A stretch of DNA of 6,398 bases from Candidatus Nanopusillus sp. Lineage in GTDB: Archaea; Nanobdellota; Nanobdellia; Nanobdellales; Nanobdellaceae. Position numbers and translations under genes: made by a program. Shown here one piece after another: positions 443 through 6,340 of the stretch; the stretch's first letter is position 1; every line of letters begins with the position of its first letter. The stretch covers positions 1-6,398 of the forward strand of contig JAWDMD010000023.1 in the NCBI GenBank assembly GCA_046536775.1, written 5' to 3'. The notes beneath the pieces were generated by a model, which was not told the origin of the DNA, did no database searches, and was given only the letters and a program-made list of their open reading frames with translations.

Positions 443-655
443 TTAATCTTTATCTGATATTTCTTCGTAATATATAGCATTTGTAGGACATGCCTTTGCG
501 GCAATTTTTATATCTTCTATATCTTCTTCAGAAGAAATTGTATTATTTTTTATTACTATCCTATTATTTTCAATTGAAAAAATGTTTTTATTTATCAAAT
601 AGCATGCCAAACAATTTATACATTTACTATAATCAATATCTACTATATATTTCAT
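443..655 (-). CDS. Small monocluster [4Fe-4S]-type ferredoxin, the divergent second copy
   Basis: The 70-aa ORF carries CxxCxxC (CINCLAC) plus a distal CP (KACPTNAI), the four-ligand pattern of single-cluster ferredoxins. Its size and layout match the upstream paralog. Its start ATG (655-653) overlaps the upstream TAA (657-655) by 1 nt, read as TAATG on the minus strand. Confidence 0.8.
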   Translation of the reverse strand: MKYIVDIDYSKCINCLACYLINKNIFSIENNRIVIKNNTISSEEDIEDIKIAAKACPTNAIYYEEISDKD

Positions 656-864
656 TAATCATTTACATCTTCTATCTTAATTGAATGTGTTGGGCATGCA
701 ACTTCAGCATCTCTTGCTTTTTGTATTAAATTTGTATCTTCAATAACTTCAACTTTTGCTTTTGCTTTTCCATCAGAATCGAATTCATATATTTCTGGTG
801 CAATTGCAATACAGGTTCCGCAACCAATGCAAGTATCTTTATCAACCCATGTTTTTATTTTCAT
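655..864 (-). CDS. Monocluster [4Fe-4S] ferredoxin, Pyrococcus/Thermotoga type
   Basis: The 69-aa ORF contains DKDTCIGCGTC ... KVEVIED ... ACPTHSI. It closely resembles, from memory, the P. furiosus ferredoxin blocks DQDTCIGDAIC ... KVEVIED ... ACPVSAI. It has all four Cys ligands and lacks the extra disulfide cysteines of the Pyrococcus protein. Confidence 0.9.
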   Translation of the reverse strand: MKIKTWVDKDTCIGCGTCIAIAPEIYEFDSDGKAKAKVEVIEDTNLIQKARDAEVACPTHSIKIEDVND

Positions 865-915: not shown

Positions 916-1743
916 GTGGAATTAAATGATATTTTTGTTAGAGTAACAGATATAACAGATTATATTTTTTGTCCTAGAAAAGTTTATCTAAAAAGAGTTT
1001 TAAGATATTCGGAAGAAGATACTGAACAGAAAATATTTGGATCAATTGTTCATTCTTTATTTGATAAAATAAATGAAAAAGAGAAGGAAATAATATTTAA
1101 TATAAAAGAGTTTGTTGAATATGAAAAAATATTAAATTTATATAATCATTTTTTAATGGAATTACTGGAGGAATCTATAAAAGAATTTGAGGAACAAATA
1201 AAAAATTTAAGTTTAGATAAAAATGGTATAAAAATAAAGGCATATAGCTATGTAATAAAGGATATAGAAGATAGAGCAAAAAATGTATTTAATTTTATGA
1301 AAGATAAAGATGTATATGGAATAGAATTATGGGAATTCTTAGAACCAAAAATAAAGACAGAACTTGATGTTACATCTTTAAAATATAATATAGTTGGAAG
1401 GATTGATAGACTAGAAATATATAAAAAACAAATGATACCTTACGAAATAAAATCTGGATTTTTTAGAAGGGAACATATTACTCAATTATATTCATATTAT
1501 TTATTATTAAAAGACGAATTTCCAAATTATGATATAAAAAAAGGGATGTTATTATATGCAAAAGATAACCATAAAATAGAAATAGAGTTTAGAAATAATA
1601 GTGAAATAAATAAAATACTTGATATAAAAGATAAAATAATTAATATGGTAGACAAAAAAGAGGACCCTGGAAAAAAATTCTCTGAAAAATGCAAAAAATG
1701 TGCTTTTTATAATATTTGTTGGAAAAATGGAAATAAAAATTGA
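916..1743 (+). CDS. cas4: Cas4/DUF83-family PD-(D/E)xK nuclease with a four-cysteine Fe-S cluster signature; no CRISPR or other cas genes in the window
   Basis: Family motifs present: N-terminal DYIFCPRKVYL (the Cas4 CPRK cysteine), GSIVHSLF, GRIDRLE (motif II Asp), PYEIKSG (ExK), QLYSYYLLL (QxxxY), and C-terminal CKKCAFYNIC (Cx2Cx5C). The start is GTG at 916, the first start codon after the in-frame TAG at 910-912. A K/E-rich segment of about 90 aa (residues ~50-140) is inserted relative to typical ~200-aa Cas4 proteins. Confidence 0.85.
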   Translation: MELNDIFVRVTDITDYIFCPRKVYLKRVLRYSEEDTEQKIFGSIVHSLFDKINEKEKEIIFNIKEFVEYEKILNLYNHFLMELLEESIKEFEEQIKNLSLDKNGIKIKAYSYVIKDIEDRAKNVFNFMKDKDVYGIELWEFLEPKIKTELDVTSLKYNIVGRIDRLEIYKKQMIPYEIKSGFFRREHITQLYSYYLLLKDEFPNYDIKKGMLLYAKDNHKIEIEFRNNSEINKILDIKDKIINMVDKKEDPGKKFSEKCKKCAFYNICWKNGNKN

Positions 1744-2491
1744 TACTAGAAAAAGTATATATGAAAATATAAATGAGGTATATGAAAAGATAAAAGAATT
1801 AAAAAATAAAAGACAAAAAATAGAAAGTTTGATAAAAGAATTGGAAGAAAAATTAAATAATATTGAGGAAAAAATAATTATTGAAAAAAAGAAGGAAGAA
1901 ATTAAGAGAAATAAAAAATGGTATGAGAAATTTAGATGGATGTTTACAACAAATAACTTTCTATTAATCGCTGGAAAAGATTCTGTCACAAATGAAATTA
2001 TTATAAATAAATATTTAGAAAAAAATGATTTAGTATTTCATGCGGATATTGTTGGATCTCCTTTTGGTATATTAAAAAATGGAAGAGATGCAAGTGAAAT
2101 AGATATATATGAAGCTGCAAAATTCGTTGGATCATATTCTAGAGCATGGAAAGATAAATTATCATCTATAGATGTATATTATGTATATCCGGATCAGGTA
2201 TCAAAAAAAGCACCTTCTGGAATGTATTTAAAAAAAGGTTCTTTTATGATATATGGTGAAAAGAATTATATAAAAGTAAATTTAGAAATTGCATTGGCAT
2301 TTGAAGATTATAATATTATTTCGGGGGTACCTGAAAGTATAAAAGATAAATATAAAAATTATGTTATATTAGTTCCTGGAAATAAAAAACCAATTGATAT
2401 TGCAAAACAATTAGAAAATATTTTTAAAGTTGATTATAATATTATAGTAGGATATCTTCCTGGTGATAGTGATATACTATCTATCAAGTAA
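1727..2491 (+). CDS. NFACT-R (DUF814) domain protein: the C-terminal half of an NEMF/Rqc2/RqcH-type ribosome quality control factor, lacking the NFACT-N and HhH parts
   Basis: WYEKFRWMFTTNNFLLIAGKDSVTNEIIINKYL..DLVFHAD...AAKFVGSYSRAW...VSKKAPSGMYLKKGSFMIYGEKNY matches the conserved NFACT-R core. From memory, human NEMF reads [24 protein letters not shown]. It is preceded by IKIDTRKSIYENINEVYEKIKELK and a K/E coiled coil, as in the helical hairpin of full-length homologs. I prefer ATG 1727 (MEIKIDT, 17-nt overlap with cas4) over the track start at 1700 (44-nt overlap). Confidence 0.85.
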   Translation: MEIKIDTRKSIYENINEVYEKIKELKNKRQKIESLIKELEEKLNNIEEKIIIEKKKEEIKRNKKWYEKFRWMFTTNNFLLIAGKDSVTNEIIINKYLEKNDLVFHADIVGSPFGILKNGRDASEIDIYEAAKFVGSYSRAWKDKLSSIDVYYVYPDQVSKKAPSGMYLKKGSFMIYGEKNYIKVNLEIALAFEDYNIISGVPESIKDKYKNYVILVPGNKKPIDIAKQLENIFKVDYNIIVGYLPGDSDILSIK

Positions 2492-2526: not shown

Positions 2527-4443
2527 ATGGATAACAGAGTAGTGGTAACAATAAGTAGATTATTTAGTTTTTTAATAGGGGTAGTATTATTAGCACTTGG
2601 TATACATTCACAAGAATTACTAATAGAACCACAAACACAAACATTATTAGCAAATGCAGCAAACAATTCAACATTTATAATAAAGTTATATGGAGTAAAT
2701 CAGATACCTGAGGAGGCATATATGTATTTTAATATATATGCACCAAATGGACAATTAATATATCAATATTATGAACCAATAACAGTATGTACAGGATTAA
2801 ATATATATCAAGTATCAGTAAATCCTTTAGAATTGGAGAATTTAGTACAACAGTATAATTATTCATGTACATATTATGGATGTTCAACACCGCAATATAC
2901 TTTTACAGTACAGGCAAATGTAACATTATTATATCCATCTGGTTTAGAAGATGTAACATCAAGTCAATCATATAATTTAGCATTTGTACCATATAATTTA
3001 ACATTATCATTAATACAATTACCAGAAGTAATTTCACAACAACAAGCACAACAATATGGAATAAATGTACAATCAGTAGTATATTTACAAAATGTTGAAA
3101 CAAACATACAATCCTCTACATTAACATTAACATTATACAATTCACAAGGAAATATTGTATATCAAACACAAGAAAATGTAAATTTGCAATCAGGAGAGAA
3201 TTTATTGACTATAAATATACCAAACTATTATTTAGAAAATGTACAAGGACAAATGTATGTATTAGAACAATTGAATGTTATATTATCTAATGGACAAGTA
3301 TTAACACAACAAGCAGAACAATCATTTTATATATCAAATAATCAAAATGGACAAAACATACAAGTAGTTTCAGTATCACCAAACTTCAATTCATTGAACA
3401 ATTTAGTAAATTCTGTATATAATGTAGAAGTATTAATGGAGAATTCAGGTTATCAGACAGTAAATGCAACAGTTCAAATGTTACTATATGATCAATATGG
3501 GGATTTAATATACAATCTACAAGGTTCACAAATAATATCTTCAGGTTCTCAAGGGGAAGTAACATTACCATTAAATACAATAGGATTACAGCCAGGATAT
3601 TATACAATAGTATTATATATATATCAAAATGGAGCAGAAATATATCAATATAATTATACAATAACAATAAATGAACAACAAATACAACCAGTAAATGTAT
3701 TAAGTGTATATGCAAATACATTTAATGTAAAACCAGGACAATTTATAGAATTATATGCAAATTTAGAATCTAACTTACCAATGAATATACAAGTACAACC
3801 AATAGTAGAATCACAACAATTAAATATATTCCAACAATTATCAACAGTAACATTATTACAAAATCAAGTAACACAATTGCCAATAGTAATATATATTCCA
3901 GAGAATTTAACAGCAGGATATTATCCAGTACAATTTGTATTTAATTATAATGGAATATCACAAACATATACATATAATCTATATGTAAATGGAACAAAAA
4001 TAATAACAAAACCAATAAGTGCATCTTTGGTTGGATATCTACCATTAAAATATGGAGAAAATTCAACAATATATCTAGTAATAAGTTCAAATACAACAGA
4101 AATATATAATTTATTAATACAGGCATATGCATCTGGAGGAGAAGTATATCCAGAACAACAAGAAGTACAGATAGGGGGTATGTATAATGAACAAATACCA
4201 TTAAATGTAACTGCAGAAAGTAATAATGTAACAATATATGTAAATGTAATAGATCAACAAACAGGACAAGTATTATATTCATTAAATGAAACATATTCTG
4301 TATCCCAAGGATCTTCAGTAGCATTACCATCATCAGAATTGATATTCTGGATATTAGTAGTATTAGCAATAATAATAATAGCTGCAGTATTAATGGAATC
4401 AAGAAGAGGTGGTAAAAAAGAAAAGGAAAAAGCTGAAGAATAG
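2527..4443 (+). CDS. Large surface-exposed glycoprotein (S-layer-like or adhesin-like): signal peptide, tandem beta-sandwich-like repeats, C-terminal TM anchor with a K/E tail
   Basis: The N-terminal hydrophobic segment is SRLFSFLIGVVLLALGIHS followed by QE. The C-terminal TM segment is LIFWILVVLAIIIIAAVLM, followed by ESRRGGKKEKEKAEE. Hand counts give 14 N-x-S/T sequons and about 68 Q plus 66 N in 638 aa. Residues 29-604 contain only 5 K and 0 R. A recurring module of about 100 aa carries ..Y..xG.(I/L)(I/V)YQ.. and ..(P/A)GYY.(I/V).(F/L).. motifs: NIYAPNGQLIYQ, LYNSQGNIVYQ, LYDQYGDLIYN, LQPGYYTIVLYIY, LTAGYYPVQFVFNY and DQQTGQVLYS. No specific family is recognised. Confidence 0.8.
   Translation: MDNRVVVTISRLFSFLIGVVLLALGIHSQELLIEPQTQTLLANAANNSTFIIKLYGVNQIPEEAYMYFNIYAPNGQLIYQYYEPITVCTGLNIYQVSVNPLELENLVQQYNYSCTYYGCSTPQYTFTVQANVTLLYPSGLEDVTSSQSYNLAFVPYNLTLSLIQLPEVISQQQAQQYGINVQSVVYLQNVETNIQSSTLTLTLYNSQGNIVYQTQENVNLQSGENLLTINIPNYYLENVQGQMYVLEQLNVILSNGQVLTQQAEQSFYISNNQNGQNIQVVSVSPNFNSLNNLVNSVYNVEVLMENSGYQTVNATVQMLLYDQYGDLIYNLQGSQIISSGSQGEVTLPLNTIGLQPGYYTIVLYIYQNGAEIYQYNYTITINEQQIQPVNVLSVYANTFNVKPGQFIELYANLESNLPMNIQVQPIVESQQLNIFQQLSTVTLLQNQVTQLPIVIYIPENLTAGYYPVQFVFNYNGISQTYTYNLYVNGTKIITKPISASLVGYLPLKYGENSTIYLVISSNTTEIYNLLIQAYASGGEVYPEQQEVQIGGMYNEQIPLNVTAESNNVTIYVNVIDQQTGQVLYSLNETYSVSQGSSVALPSSELIFWILVVLAIIIIAAVLMESRRGGKKEKEKAEE
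4414..4431 (-). terminator. T-rich tract on the minus strand (T5-CC-T4-C-T6), a candidate archaeal oligo-T terminator for the sRNA/operon transcript
   Basis: This is the complement of the purine-rich codons for the GGKKEKEK tail of the convergent surface-protein gene. It is the first T-rich run on the minus strand after the candidate D box (4451), 20-37 nt downstream of it. Confidence 0.3.
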
Positions 4444-4450: not shown

Positions 4451-4498
4451 TCTGTTTGCTTTAATTCATCATTTTTCAGCCTGGGACGGTTTCTTCAT
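4451..4498 (-). ncRNA. Candidate box C/D guide sRNA
   Basis: The minus strand reads AUGAAGA (C, 4498-4492), then the 12-nt spacer AACCGUCCCAGG, then CUGA (D', 4479-4476), then AAA, then AUGAUGA (C', 4472-4466), then the 11-nt spacer AUUAAAGCAAA, then CAGA (D, 4454-4451). The internal D'/C' pair is canonical and both spacings fit the archaeal layout. The terminal C and D boxes each deviate by one base. Confidence 0.45.
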
Positions 4499-4500
4499 TT

Positions 4501-4554
4501 TGTACCCCCACTAACTCAACCTTTTTCATCTATCTAAGGTTACCCTAGTAGGGG
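4501..4554 (-). ncRNA. Candidate single-hairpin H/ACA-like guide sRNA; the alternative is a long structured hairpin in the 3' UTR
   Basis: The minus strand reads CCCCUAC / UAGGGU / AACCUU / AGAUAGAUGAAA / AAGGUU / GAGUUA / GUGGGGG / U / ACA. The parts are a 7-bp lower stem, a 6+6 internal loop, a 6-bp upper stem, an apical loop with a GA...GA K-loop-like arrangement, and ACA at 4503-4501. The ACA lies 14 nt from the base of the upper stem. The G-U wobbles make the fold specific to the minus strand. The local region is about 47% G+C. Confidence 0.35.
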
Positions 4555-5082
4555 CTATATGTGTTCTAAAAAATTAATTATTATATCTTTATTTAAAACT
4601 TCTGGATGGAACAATGAAAAATATATATTTCTATATTTATACAATACTGGAATATTTTCTACCTTTCCAATTATATAGAATTTTTCATCAATCTTTGGAA
4701 TTTTTGTTATTAAAAAATATGCTTCAAAGTCTTTATCAACTATTTTATCTTTATTTATCATTTTTACATAATATTTTCCAATCAATTCTTTATCTTCAAA
4801 ATCGTAATTTAATAATCTTATTAATATTTGGCTTCCAGAACATATTGCAAGAGTTTTTATATTATTTTCAATTATAAATTCAAAATTTTTTATATAATTT
4901 AAATAATCAAAATCCATTATTGCAGTACCAGTTATTATTATTTTTTCAAAATATTTCTCTATTTTATCCTTATATGAGAAAACTTTATAATTAATGTTCA
5001 ATTCTTTTAAAATATTTATTATTGGATATAGAAATTCATATTTTGATAGTTCTTCTTTATTTGTATGAATTATTCCGATCAT
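4555..5082 (-). CDS. Class I glutamine amidotransferase, GMP synthase subunit A (GuaAA)-like
   Basis: The nucleophile elbow is LAICSGSQIL (canonical G-I-C-L-G-H-Q). The His-Glu of the triad sits in FSLFHPEV (canonical QFHPE). IIITGTA occupies the position of the ILSGGP motif. The C-terminal ...IYFSLFHPEVLNKDIIINFL resembles archaeal GuaAA. The start ATG overlaps the upstream TGA in ATGA (5082-5079). Confidence 0.8.
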   Translation of the reverse strand: MIGIIHTNKEELSKYEFLYPIINILKELNINYKVFSYKDKIEKYFEKIIITGTAIMDFDYLNYIKNFEFIIENNIKTLAICSGSQILIRLLNYDFEDKELIGKYYVKMINKDKIVDKDFEAYFLITKIPKIDEKFYIIGKVENIPVLYKYRNIYFSLFHPEVLNKDIIINFLEHI

Positions 5083-5744
5083 TCTAAATAAGCATTTTTT
5101 ATAATATATTCTGCATAATTTTTTTCTACCCTTATTTCATAATCTTTTATTATTATCCTTTTCTTAAATAATGGTTGATATAAAACAAATGTTTCATATT
5201 CCCCACCTTCTCCTGCAATATTTATTTTATATTTTTCTTTATATTCAATTAATTTTTTTATTATATTTTCCTCAATAACTTTTCCCAAAATATTTATATC
5301 TAAAGGATATGTATACCATCCAACAATTATAAACTGAAAATTATTTTTCAATAATTCATATAAATATTCTTTTTCGTCTTTTAACCATAATGGATTGAAA
5401 CACCATAGATTTAATCTCTTACATATTCTTTGAAATCTAGATCCCTGATATGTAGATCTAATTGCTCCAGTAACAATTCCATCAATATTATATTTTTCTT
5501 TTAAATATTTTAATGCTTCAAATAGTGTTTCTTCCTCATTATTATTTATATAAAATCTTTCTATAGGTATACCTAATGCTTTTGATTGTAGTTCAGTTAA
5601 ATTATTATTAATATAATGATATAAATAACTCTCATTATTTTTTGGGATTATATTTAATAATACAGATACTTCATGATATTTTGATGCAATATATAATGAA
5701 TAATTTGAATCTTTTCCTCCAGAATATAATACTGCAAGTTTCAT
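5079..5744 (-). CDS. dph6: PP-loop ATP pyrophosphatase of the MJ0570/DUF71/COG2102 family (diphthine-ammonia ligase, Dph6-like)
   Basis: The N-terminal PP-loop is LYSGGKDS. Family-specific blocks are GAIRSTYQGSRFQRICKRLNLWCFNPLW and AGEGGEYETFVLYQPLF. The 221-aa length is typical of the archaeal stand-alone enzyme. ATGA overlaps link it to both neighbours. Confidence 0.9.
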   Translation of the reverse strand: MKLAVLYSGGKDSNYSLYIASKYHEVSVLLNIIPKNNESYLYHYINNNLTELQSKALGIPIERFYINNNEEETLFEALKYLKEKYNIDGIVTGAIRSTYQGSRFQRICKRLNLWCFNPLWLKDEKEYLYELLKNNFQFIIVGWYTYPLDINILGKVIEENIIKKLIEYKEKYKINIAGEGGEYETFVLYQPLFKKRIIIKDYEIRVEKNYAEYIIKNAYLE

Positions 5745-6340
5745 ACCATATTTTTTGGTATAGAACTTATTAAATTATATATTAAGTTGTATAAATAATT
5801 TCCAGGTAATTTCTGATAAATTATATTACAATTTTCTGAATAACAAAAAACATTATTTTCATATAAAAATACATTGTCTTTAACAATTATTATTGGATAT
5901 GTCATATTTATATAATATGTTACATTAGAACAAGATGGAAATTCAATGCATCTTATCATTGGACATAATTCTCCAGGTTTGCATGTTATATTGCATGGAT
6001 TTACAATTGGTAAACATTCTTCAATTGTTATATTATAATAAATTGTTTGATTACAAAATATAAATGAAGTAGTATTAATATATTCTACCAATGGTATTAT
6101 ATAATTTATTCCAGGTCCATTATTTTTTATTATAAAATATCCGTCAGTAATATTATATAAATAACACCCATTTCCATATAGATTCAATAAATATAATGAT
6201 ATATTTTGATTATCAATTATAATATTTGTTTTTTCTAAAACATAGTTATTATTAAAGTTTACATTATTTAATAAAAATATAAAAAATAATACCAATATAG
6301 ATGTTATTCCTAGAATTATTGTATAAAAATAAGATCTCAT
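5741..6340 (-). CDS. Secreted or membrane-anchored cysteine-rich glycoprotein; hypothetical
   Basis: The N-terminal hydrophobic segment is YFYTIILGITSILVLFFIFLL. Hand counts of the 199-aa protein give 10 Cys (for example NPCNITCKPGELCPMIRCIEFPSC) and 8 N-x-S/T sequons. No family is recognised. The gene is the first of the minus-strand operon, and its stop overlaps the dph6-like start (ATGA at 5744-5741). Confidence 0.65.
   Translation of the reverse strand: MRSYFYTIILGITSILVLFFIFLLNNVNFNNNYVLEKTNIIIDNQNISLYLLNLYGNGCYLYNITDGYFIIKNNGPGINYIIPLVEYINTTSFIFCNQTIYYNITIEECLPIVNPCNITCKPGELCPMIRCIEFPSCSNVTYYINMTYPIIIVKDNVFLYENNVFCYSENCNIIYQKLPGNYLYNLIYNLISSIPKNMV

Follow-up and report, generated by a model that had tools for sequence, protein, structure and literature searches.

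We describe here a pair of genes on a 6,398-nucleotide stretch of Candidatus Nanopusillus sp. DNA (contig JAWDMD010000023.1, about 23% GC; the window hereafter), in which the gene for the diphthine-ammonia ligase Dph6 is followed directly by the gene for a small class-I glutamine amidotransferase (GATase). Judging from the sequences of both proteins and their relatives, the two are probably subunits of a single glutamine-dependent diphthamide synthetase, the GATase furnishing the ammonia with which Dph6 would amidate diphthine on translation elongation factor 2 (EF-2). This reading draws on the identities of the two proteins, an intact catalytic triad in the GATase, a near-obligate linkage of the two genes, natural fusions that keep the same order, and a sister genome that offers the GATase no alternative partner. 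By analogy with known enzymes we infer the rest, namely that the two proteins form a complex, that ammonia passes from one to the other, that the reaction depends on glutamine and that the glutaminase is gated.

A linked and sometimes fused gene pair

By its sequence, the upstream gene of the pair encodes a genuine and unambiguous archaeal Dph6. The protein scores 248.8 bits against the NCBIfam equivalog TIGR03679 (Dph6_archaeal; cutoff 197.3) and 210 bits against PF01902 (E = 3.9e-62), and it is 95-97% identical to its counterparts in Candidatus Nanobsidianus stetteri Nst1 and Candidatus Nanopusillus acidilobi. The window therefore belongs to a nanoarchaeon of terrestrial hot springs, of the Nanopusillus/Nanobsidianus type. 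An earlier note on this DNA, made from the letters alone, had read a PP-loop SGGKDS and a GEGGEYET block in this gene, an ATGA overlap with the GATase gene on the same strand, and an intact Cys-His-Glu signature in the GATase. All of these features are present at the positions listed in Table 1, and the EGGE core shows no variation across our alignment of fused proteins (A4).

The downstream protein only marginally passes the Pfam model PF00117, at 23.3 bits for a gathering score of 22.8. Its assignment as a class-I GATase is nonetheless secured by sequence and structural modelling, because its AlphaFold (AF2) model matches GuaAA structures and its relatives score higher on PF00117. The model is confident (predicted local distance difference test, pLDDT, 94.5; predicted TM score, pTM, 0.91) and Foldseek aligns it to archaeal GuaAA structures with TM scores of 0.78-0.83 (2a9v, 0.83; 2d7j, 0.81), while other family members and fusions reach a clear 39.6-77.5 bits on PF00117. 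The triad of Cys81, His159 and Glu161 lies in AICSG and FHPE contexts. Across 158 family representatives the Cys is kept in 150, the His in 151 and the Glu in 154; about 95% retain the full triad, with GIC[AS]GxQ and FHPE as the motifs, and within the Nanoarchaeota set the catalytic Cys is invariant. The family also has features of its own, namely an N-terminal EFxxP motif in which E16, F17 and P20 are invariant, and a conserved GT pair (G52, T53) within an IIITGT segment. The N. acidilobi proteome, in which about 200 of 656 proteins were detected, holds no values for either Dph6 or the GATase and is hence uninformative.

Three minus-strand open reading frames (ORFs) of the window (5741-6340, 5079-5744 and 4555-5082) are linked serially by ATGA overlaps. 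In so compact a genome the overlap by itself carries little weight, because the unrelated, lineage-specific ORF at 5741-6340 overlaps the start of Dph6 in the identical way. The pairing of Dph6 with the GATase is significant because it is conserved elsewhere, and not because of the overlap in the window.

That conservation is extensive. A word-indexed homolog search retrieved only 9 nanoarchaeal proteins, and the true size of the family became apparent from an exhaustive profile search over 1.84 billion representatives, which returned 639 clusters (50% identity) at E<=1e-3, 312 of them at E<=1e-10. Members in named databases extend beyond Nanoarchaeota to Woesearchaeota, Pacearchaeota, Aenigmarchaeota and Bathyarchaeia. 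Dph6 was located in 12 species loci of GTDB Nanoarchaeota, and in 11 of them the GATase lies directly downstream. The pair is kept in three unrelated flanking contexts, with GATase identity down to 41%; two further contigs, L004 and L005, carry it among entirely different neighbouring genes. A bathyarchaeial locus (L020) carries Dph6 and the GATase with the same 4-nt overlap, and three loci of Woese-/Pacearchaeota type (L022, L024, L108) keep both genes within a single co-directional cluster, separated by about 1-1.5 kb.

We also scanned metagenome loci with a 20-sequence family alignment, which yielded 80 loci. Nine have at most 135 nt of upstream contig and could not be assessed; in every one of the other 71, Dph6 is encoded upstream of the GATase and on its strand, directly adjacent in 69, and the 4-nt ATGA overlap is found in 62 of 70. 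The 80 loci span a GC content of 27-71% and fall into 51 clusters at 70% identity (median pairwise GATase identity 46%), and 46 of these 51 clusters hold a member adjacent to Dph6. The linkage is thus near-obligate across deep divergence, and the sample is not a single shallow clade. Pairwise divergences of Dph6 and of the GATase are correlated (r = 0.88), and the two genes have therefore been inherited together. The earlier note had suggested asking whether the adjacency recurs across archaea, and it does so in Nanoarchaeota, Bathyarchaeia and every metagenome locus that could be assessed.

In some lineages the two proteins are a single chain. Among the top 150 family representatives, four (P0062, P0070, P0111 and P0153) are proteins of 400-470 amino acids in which PF01902 forms the N-terminal and PF00117 the C-terminal domain, joined by low-complexity linkers of 20-65 residues. 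A search with one fusion (P0278) returned at least 18 fusion clusters of 392-499 amino acids that are merely 30-42% identical to it. The order is Dph6 first and GATase second, colinear with the gene order. One fusion, P0294, is present on seven contigs, one of them a 107-kb contig of a metagenome-assembled genome (MAG) at NCBI. Its AF2 model has a pLDDT of 87.3 and a pTM of 0.87 over 438 residues, with residues 237-253 disordered; by Foldseek, the N-terminal domain resembles Pyrococcus Dph6 (3rk1, 2d13; TMt 0.94) and the C-terminal domain resembles GuaAA, and no PDB chain was found that spans both. A frameshift artefact as the origin of the fusions is ruled out by the 20-65-residue linkers and by recurrence on several independent contigs. 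The fusion search also returned proteins of other composition, in which Dph6 is joined to AsnB, a class-II GATase (P0311, P0312), or to RidA (P0313).

The GATase family is distinct, with archaeal GuaAA as its nearest characterised relative by sequence and by modelled fold. On the GuaAA equivalog (NF001975 / TIGR00888; cutoff 198) the window GATase scores 21.8 bits and a central member of the family, P0081, 72.7 bits; no member comes near the cutoff, 1.4e-26 being the best E-value over the 138 that were scored. In the reverse direction, GuaAA chains from the PDB score no higher than 79.7 bits against the family profile (1wl8 and 2lxn at E ~1e-21), whereas family members reach 177-237 bits on a near-equivalent profile made from the same sequences. 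The window GATase is likewise far from PdxT (NF010050; 24.7 bits, cutoff 181), and NCBIfam has no model that covers the Dph6-linked family.

What else the GATase might serve was looked for in the published gene table, an annotation, of the complete genome of N. acidilobi, which is 95% identical. The pair is Nps_03125 and Nps_03130 there. The table has one 'GMP synth' entry, which is the GATase, and one 'PP-loop' entry, which is Dph6; it lists no guaAB, NAD synthetase, AsnB, CarB or PdxS, and no 'pyridoxal' entry. Other amidotransferase-related genes in it are GatD, GatE and CTP synthase, the last of which has a fused GATase of its own. According to the N. acidilobi genome paper, synthesis of nucleotides, cofactors, amino acids and lipids is beyond this organism. 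Eight Pfam-annotated neighbourhoods of the family contain no GMP_synt_C or other amidoligase gene.

A possible mechanism and its competitors

Under the two-subunit reading, Dph6 would adenylate the carboxylate of diphthine, which is carried by a conserved EF-2 histidine, a chemistry established in the yeast family and extended here to the archaeal protein. The GATase, translationally coupled to Dph6, would hydrolyse glutamine through a thioester on Cys81 with the help of His159 and Glu161. Nascent ammonia would then pass from the GATase to the Dph6 active site and displace AMP, giving diphthamide. The glutaminase is probably held in a complex with Dph6, and it probably becomes active only once Dph6 holds ATP and diphthine-EF-2; both the complex and the gating are proposed on the model of GuaAA/GuaAB, the split GMP synthetase of archaea. 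The earlier note had ventured that the GATase delivers glutamine-derived ammonia to Dph6, and this idea gains strong support from the linkage, the fusions, the low scores on GuaAA models and the lack of any other listed partner.

Several observations weigh against this reading. The GATase is accessory and not essential to the chemistry, and as a partner it is dispensable in principle, because Dph6 does without it in most archaea and in every eukaryote. Yeast Dph6 works in vitro with ammonium. The most divergent nanoarchaeal member, P0009 (of the lineage of L004), carries Ser where the catalytic His would be, and the Cys is missing in about 5% of family representatives. In the loci of Woese-/Pacearchaeota type, two to three unrelated genes stand between Dph6 and the GATase. 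At one locus, that of Nanopusillaceae archaeon KM4331-16 (L015), Dph6 is retained and the GATase gene is absent: the deletion is clean (L015 4660-4850), with a conserved spacer RNA element, described below, starting about 60 nt past the end of Dph6, and so the glutaminase has been lost from the locus in that lineage. Finally, the structural argument for the reading is an indirect one, based on 17 sequences: the pTM of 0.87 for the P0294 fusion, obtained despite a disordered linker, may imply that the two domains are placed confidently relative to each other.

Three other explanations of the pair can be set against the two-subunit reading. The earlier note had named one itself, that the GATase is simply guaAA, beside dph6 by chance and partnered with a guaAB encoded elsewhere. 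GuaAA is the closest characterised relative of the family, in sequence (1wl8, 2lxn) as in fold (2a9v), and automatic annotation does label the GATase 'GMP synthase'; yet scores on the GuaAA equivalog fall far under its cutoff, all of the assessable metagenome loci are linked to Dph6, at least 18 clusters are fused to it, and the annotated neighbourhoods lack an amidoligase gene. Because of the cutoff scores, the lack of a listed guaAB and of nucleotide synthesis in the sister genome, and the distinctness of the family, we consider this alternative effectively excluded. The second explanation accepts the DUF71 protein and the GATase as partners and gives them a different acceptor, which could be the carboxylate of a small molecule or some other macromolecule. 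The DUF71 family has more than one function, since a second subfamily has been tied to B12 salvage (PMC3541065), and NCBIfam holds the further DUF71 paralog families PAB0415 and TTX_0299. However, all ten linked or fused DUF71 proteins that we scored, from six lineages, exceed the Dph6_archaeal cutoff (228-287 bits against 197.3) and reach at most 71 bits on the two paralog models, for which the cutoff is 250. Dph2, Dph5 and EF-2 were assessed in close relatives, the 6.4-kb window itself containing none of these genes. The N. acidilobi table lists Dph2, Dph5, Dph6 and an EF-2, and its single PP-loop/DUF71 gene must therefore be its Dph6; this organism also has essentially no small-molecule biosynthesis. 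In the related Nanobdella-family loci L001 and L007, EF-2 has the loop HEDAIHRGPAQ and so keeps the diphthamide histidine, and in Nanobdella and Nanopusillaceae the EF-2 gene lies on the opposite strand only about 1-3 kb from the Dph6-GATase operon, a proximity that was not seen in the other lineages examined. On this evidence a different acceptor seems quite improbable.

The third explanation, which we regard as unlikely though less so than a change of acceptor, is that the GATase is a true partner of Dph6 and gives it no ammonia, acting instead in regulation or scaffolding, substrate recruitment or proofreading, or as a gamma-glutamyl hydrolase of the Peptidase-C26 kind. Many members also match PF07722 (Peptidase_C26) weakly, some lack the Cys or the His, and the gene has proved dispensable in L015. 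In eukaryotes, moreover, a non-catalytic helper, Dph7, acts at the same step (PMC3541065). Against a role without ammonia, the conservation of the full triad in about 95% of representatives and the GIC[AS]GxQ and FHPE motifs argue, at the level of sequence, for a working glutaminase; a GATase with a PP-loop ATPase is the canonical pairing for ammonia transfer; and the nearest relatives in sequence and in fold are all ammonia-donating GATases.

Known systems and wider meaning

The general design, in which a GATase passes ammonia to a PP-loop ATPase, is classical, and what is new is a class-I GATase as the putative partner of Dph6. GuaAA/GuaAB of M. jannaschii and P. horikoshii offers the closest likeness, being a stand-alone class-I GATase of about 180 amino acids with a separate PP-loop ATPase that adenylates a carboxyl or carbonyl group and then amidates it. 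The Dph6 pair differs from it in its ATPase, which is a DUF71 protein, and in its proposed acceptor, a modified residue of EF-2 and not xanthosine monophosphate (XMP). The Dph6-linked GATase, unlike GuaAA, also scores under the equivalog cutoff and has the EFxxP motif and the GT pair as its own; GuaA carries a GGP motif at the position of G52-T53. In fused GMP synthetases the order of the domains is opposite to the ATPase-then-GATase order of the Dph6 pair. A more distant parallel is the lipid II amidotransferase GatD/MurT, in which a small class-I GATase serves an ATP-dependent ligase of non-canonical type; the carboxylate to be amidated sits on a large substrate that is not a nucleotide. That ligase is Mur-ligase-like and not a PP-loop enzyme, and the system belongs to bacteria, where it acts on a precursor of peptidoglycan.

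Dph6 itself has been linked to ammonia-producing modules before. For rare AsnB-DUF71 fusions, the study in which Dph6 was identified (de Crecy-Lagard et al. 2012; PMC3541065) put forward glutamine as the source of ammonia. Where Dph6 gets its ammonia was a point that authors and reviewers both raised explicitly and left open. These fusions, from Methanohalophilus, Methanosalsum and Nanosalinarum (PMC3541065), share with the present pair a glutamine amidotransferase physically linked to DUF71/Dph6. In them, however, the GATase is of class II (Ntn), comes with an extra PP-loop domain, is N-terminal and is rare, and which PP-loop receives the ammonia is ambiguous, whereas here a class-I triad GATase is downstream or C-terminal, dedicated and widespread. 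The window pair does not belong to the AsnB-DUF71 type: its partner is a PF00117 protein, and true AsnB-Dph6 fusions (P0311, P0312) are separate proteins. Eukaryotic Dph6, a DUF71 domain followed by two RidA/YjgF domains, likewise carries an extra module for which a part in producing or handling ammonia has been suspected (PMC3541065), although its chemistry is that of an imine/enamine deaminase and includes no glutaminase. In the published full-text literature that we searched, no class-I GATase partner or fusion of Dph6 is described. Narrowe et al. 2018 do not mention an amidotransferase, and a 2026 preprint on complete Nanobdellota genomes contains no diphthamide, amidotransferase or purine terms.

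Extended beyond the window, the same reasoning would give a large part of the archaea a glutamine-dependent diphthamide synthetase, heteromeric or fused, in which a dedicated class-I glutaminase channels ammonia and is gated by diphthine-EF-2. We lean towards this generalisation, with less assurance than towards the pairing itself. The lineages that carry the GATase are the Nanoarchaeota, Woese-, Pace- and Aenigmarchaeota (DPANN), Bathyarchaeia and further high-GC lineages. To our knowledge, this would be the first class-I GATase with a protein amino-acid side chain as acceptor. It would extend the design of a GATase with a PP-loop ATPase from nucleotide and cofactor substrates to the post-translational modification of a translation factor, and it would answer the question of the nitrogen source of Dph6, which has stood since 2012 (PMC3541065). 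Retention of the pair in host-dependent genomes of 0.6 Mb would suggest that free ammonia is not reliable for these cells. That a glutaminase is kept in a 606-kb genome stripped of nearly all biosynthesis implies a real selective value and bears on how nitrogen is handled in host dependence. There is also a practical consequence for annotation. Members of the family are currently labelled 'GMP synthase (glutamine-hydrolysing)' or 'gamma-glutamyl-GABA hydrolase', and in metabolic reconstructions such labels can add an unwarranted step of purine biosynthesis to MAGs from DPANN and other groups.

Spacer RNA and other genes

Table 1. Positions of the features discussed, in window coordinates except for the EF-2 genes, which are numbered within the loci of the relatives
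Feature	Position	Strand	Basis or remark
Two tandem single-cluster 4Fe-4S ferredoxins, ~70 aa (Fer4_13)	443-655, 655-864	-	overlap of 1 base
Stand-alone Cas4/PD-(D/E)XK nuclease	916-1743	+	TIGR00372, 84 bits
263-aa ORF, C-terminal half of split RqcH	1700-2491	+	positions 380-621 of the 645-position archaeal RqcH (NFACT-R) profile
638-aa Q/N/Y-rich protein, convergent S-layer-like gene	2527-4443	+	N. acidilobi 'S-layer domain' (arCOG02079, Nps_03135)
Conserved GC-rich non-coding element	4451-4555	-	between GATase stop (4555) and convergent gene's stop (4443)
Textbook archaeal C/D-box small RNA (sRNA) layout	~4451-4498	-	C AUGAAGA, D' CUGA, C' AUGAUGA, D CAGA
Hairpin, ~52 nt, 17 predicted pairs	~4504-4555	-	4 compensatory double changes, Nanopusillaceae and Nanobdella
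Dph6-associated class-I (triad) glutamine amidotransferase, 175 aa, putative glutaminase subunit	4555-5082	-	PF00117, AF2 model
His159-Pro160-Glu161 (FHPE), remaining triad	4600-4608 (His159 4606-4608, Glu161 4600-4602)	-	sequence reading
Catalytic nucleophile Cys81, AICSGSQ elbow	4840-4842	-	sequence reading
Archaeal Dph6, diphthine-ammonia ligase (PP-loop ATP pyrophosphatase, DUF71/MJ0570 family), 221 aa	5079-5744	-	TIGR03679, PF01902
ATGA, overlap of Dph6 stop (TGA) and GATase start (ATG)	5079-5082	-	sequence reading
GEGGEYET, Dph6 residues 178-185	5190-5213	-	sequence reading
PP-loop SGGKDS, Dph6 residues 8-13	5706-5723	-	sequence reading
199-aa Cys-rich ORF, N-terminal transmembrane segment	5741-6340	-	ATGA overlap with Dph6 start
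EF-2 gene in relatives, just past the window's right end	L001 2175-4379; L007 2254-4458; L003 1-1718

The spacer between the GATase and the convergent gene holds a conserved non-coding element that is GC-rich amid surroundings of 20-25% GC and far better conserved than they are; it is retained in L015 despite the GATase deletion. Of the two guides in the C/D-box layout within it, one is conserved and 12 nt long, AACCGUCCCAGG (the D' guide, AACCGUCCCAG), and the second is variable. The D box is CAGA in the window and CUGA in YN1 and KM4331-08. Fibrillarin and Nop56 are encoded by N. acidilobi. Neither ARAGORN nor Rfam (E<=1) gave a match to the element, and an H/ACA reading of the hairpin was rejected, the covarying stem leaving a 3x3 internal loop that is too small for a pseudouridylation pocket.

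Around the pair, the arrangement varies with lineage. In Nanobdella and Nanopusillaceae a CDGSH zinc-finger gene stands between EF-2 and the Dph6-GATase operon. The inserts that separate Dph6 from the GATase differ among L022 (HhH-GPD, MazG and a zinc finger), L024 (HTH_20 and SIMPL) and L108 (DUF3977 and TauE), and in lineages of Woese-/Pacearchaeota type this junction seems to have taken up inserts repeatedly. The 199-residue ORF at the head of the minus-strand series matched no Pfam or NCBIfam family. Its homologs (36-88% identity) are confined to Nanopusillaceae and Nanobdella; neither L004 nor L005 yielded one, and nor did any other phylum. The ORF is hence lineage-specific and stands outside the conserved pair, although its ATGA overlap with the Dph6 start means that it is translationally coupled to it. 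In N. acidilobi it is Nps_03120, an 'uncharacterized protein'.

The remaining genes are of other kinds. Since its match is limited to one part of the RqcH profile, the 263-residue ORF is the C-terminal half of a split gene, in agreement with PMC4935971, where Nps_00030/Nps_03140 is given for Nanoarchaeota as a split 'RNA-binding protein'. It overlaps the end of the Cas4-like gene by 44 nt, and the window contains no CRISPR array or other cas gene. The 638-residue protein has no significant Pfam match; it begins with a hydrophobic segment and ends in a membrane anchor followed by a basic tail (RRGGKKEKEKAEE), and the position of its gene is conserved across all Nanopusillaceae loci. The ferredoxin genes, two in the window, are three in tandem in the relatives L001, L003 and L007.

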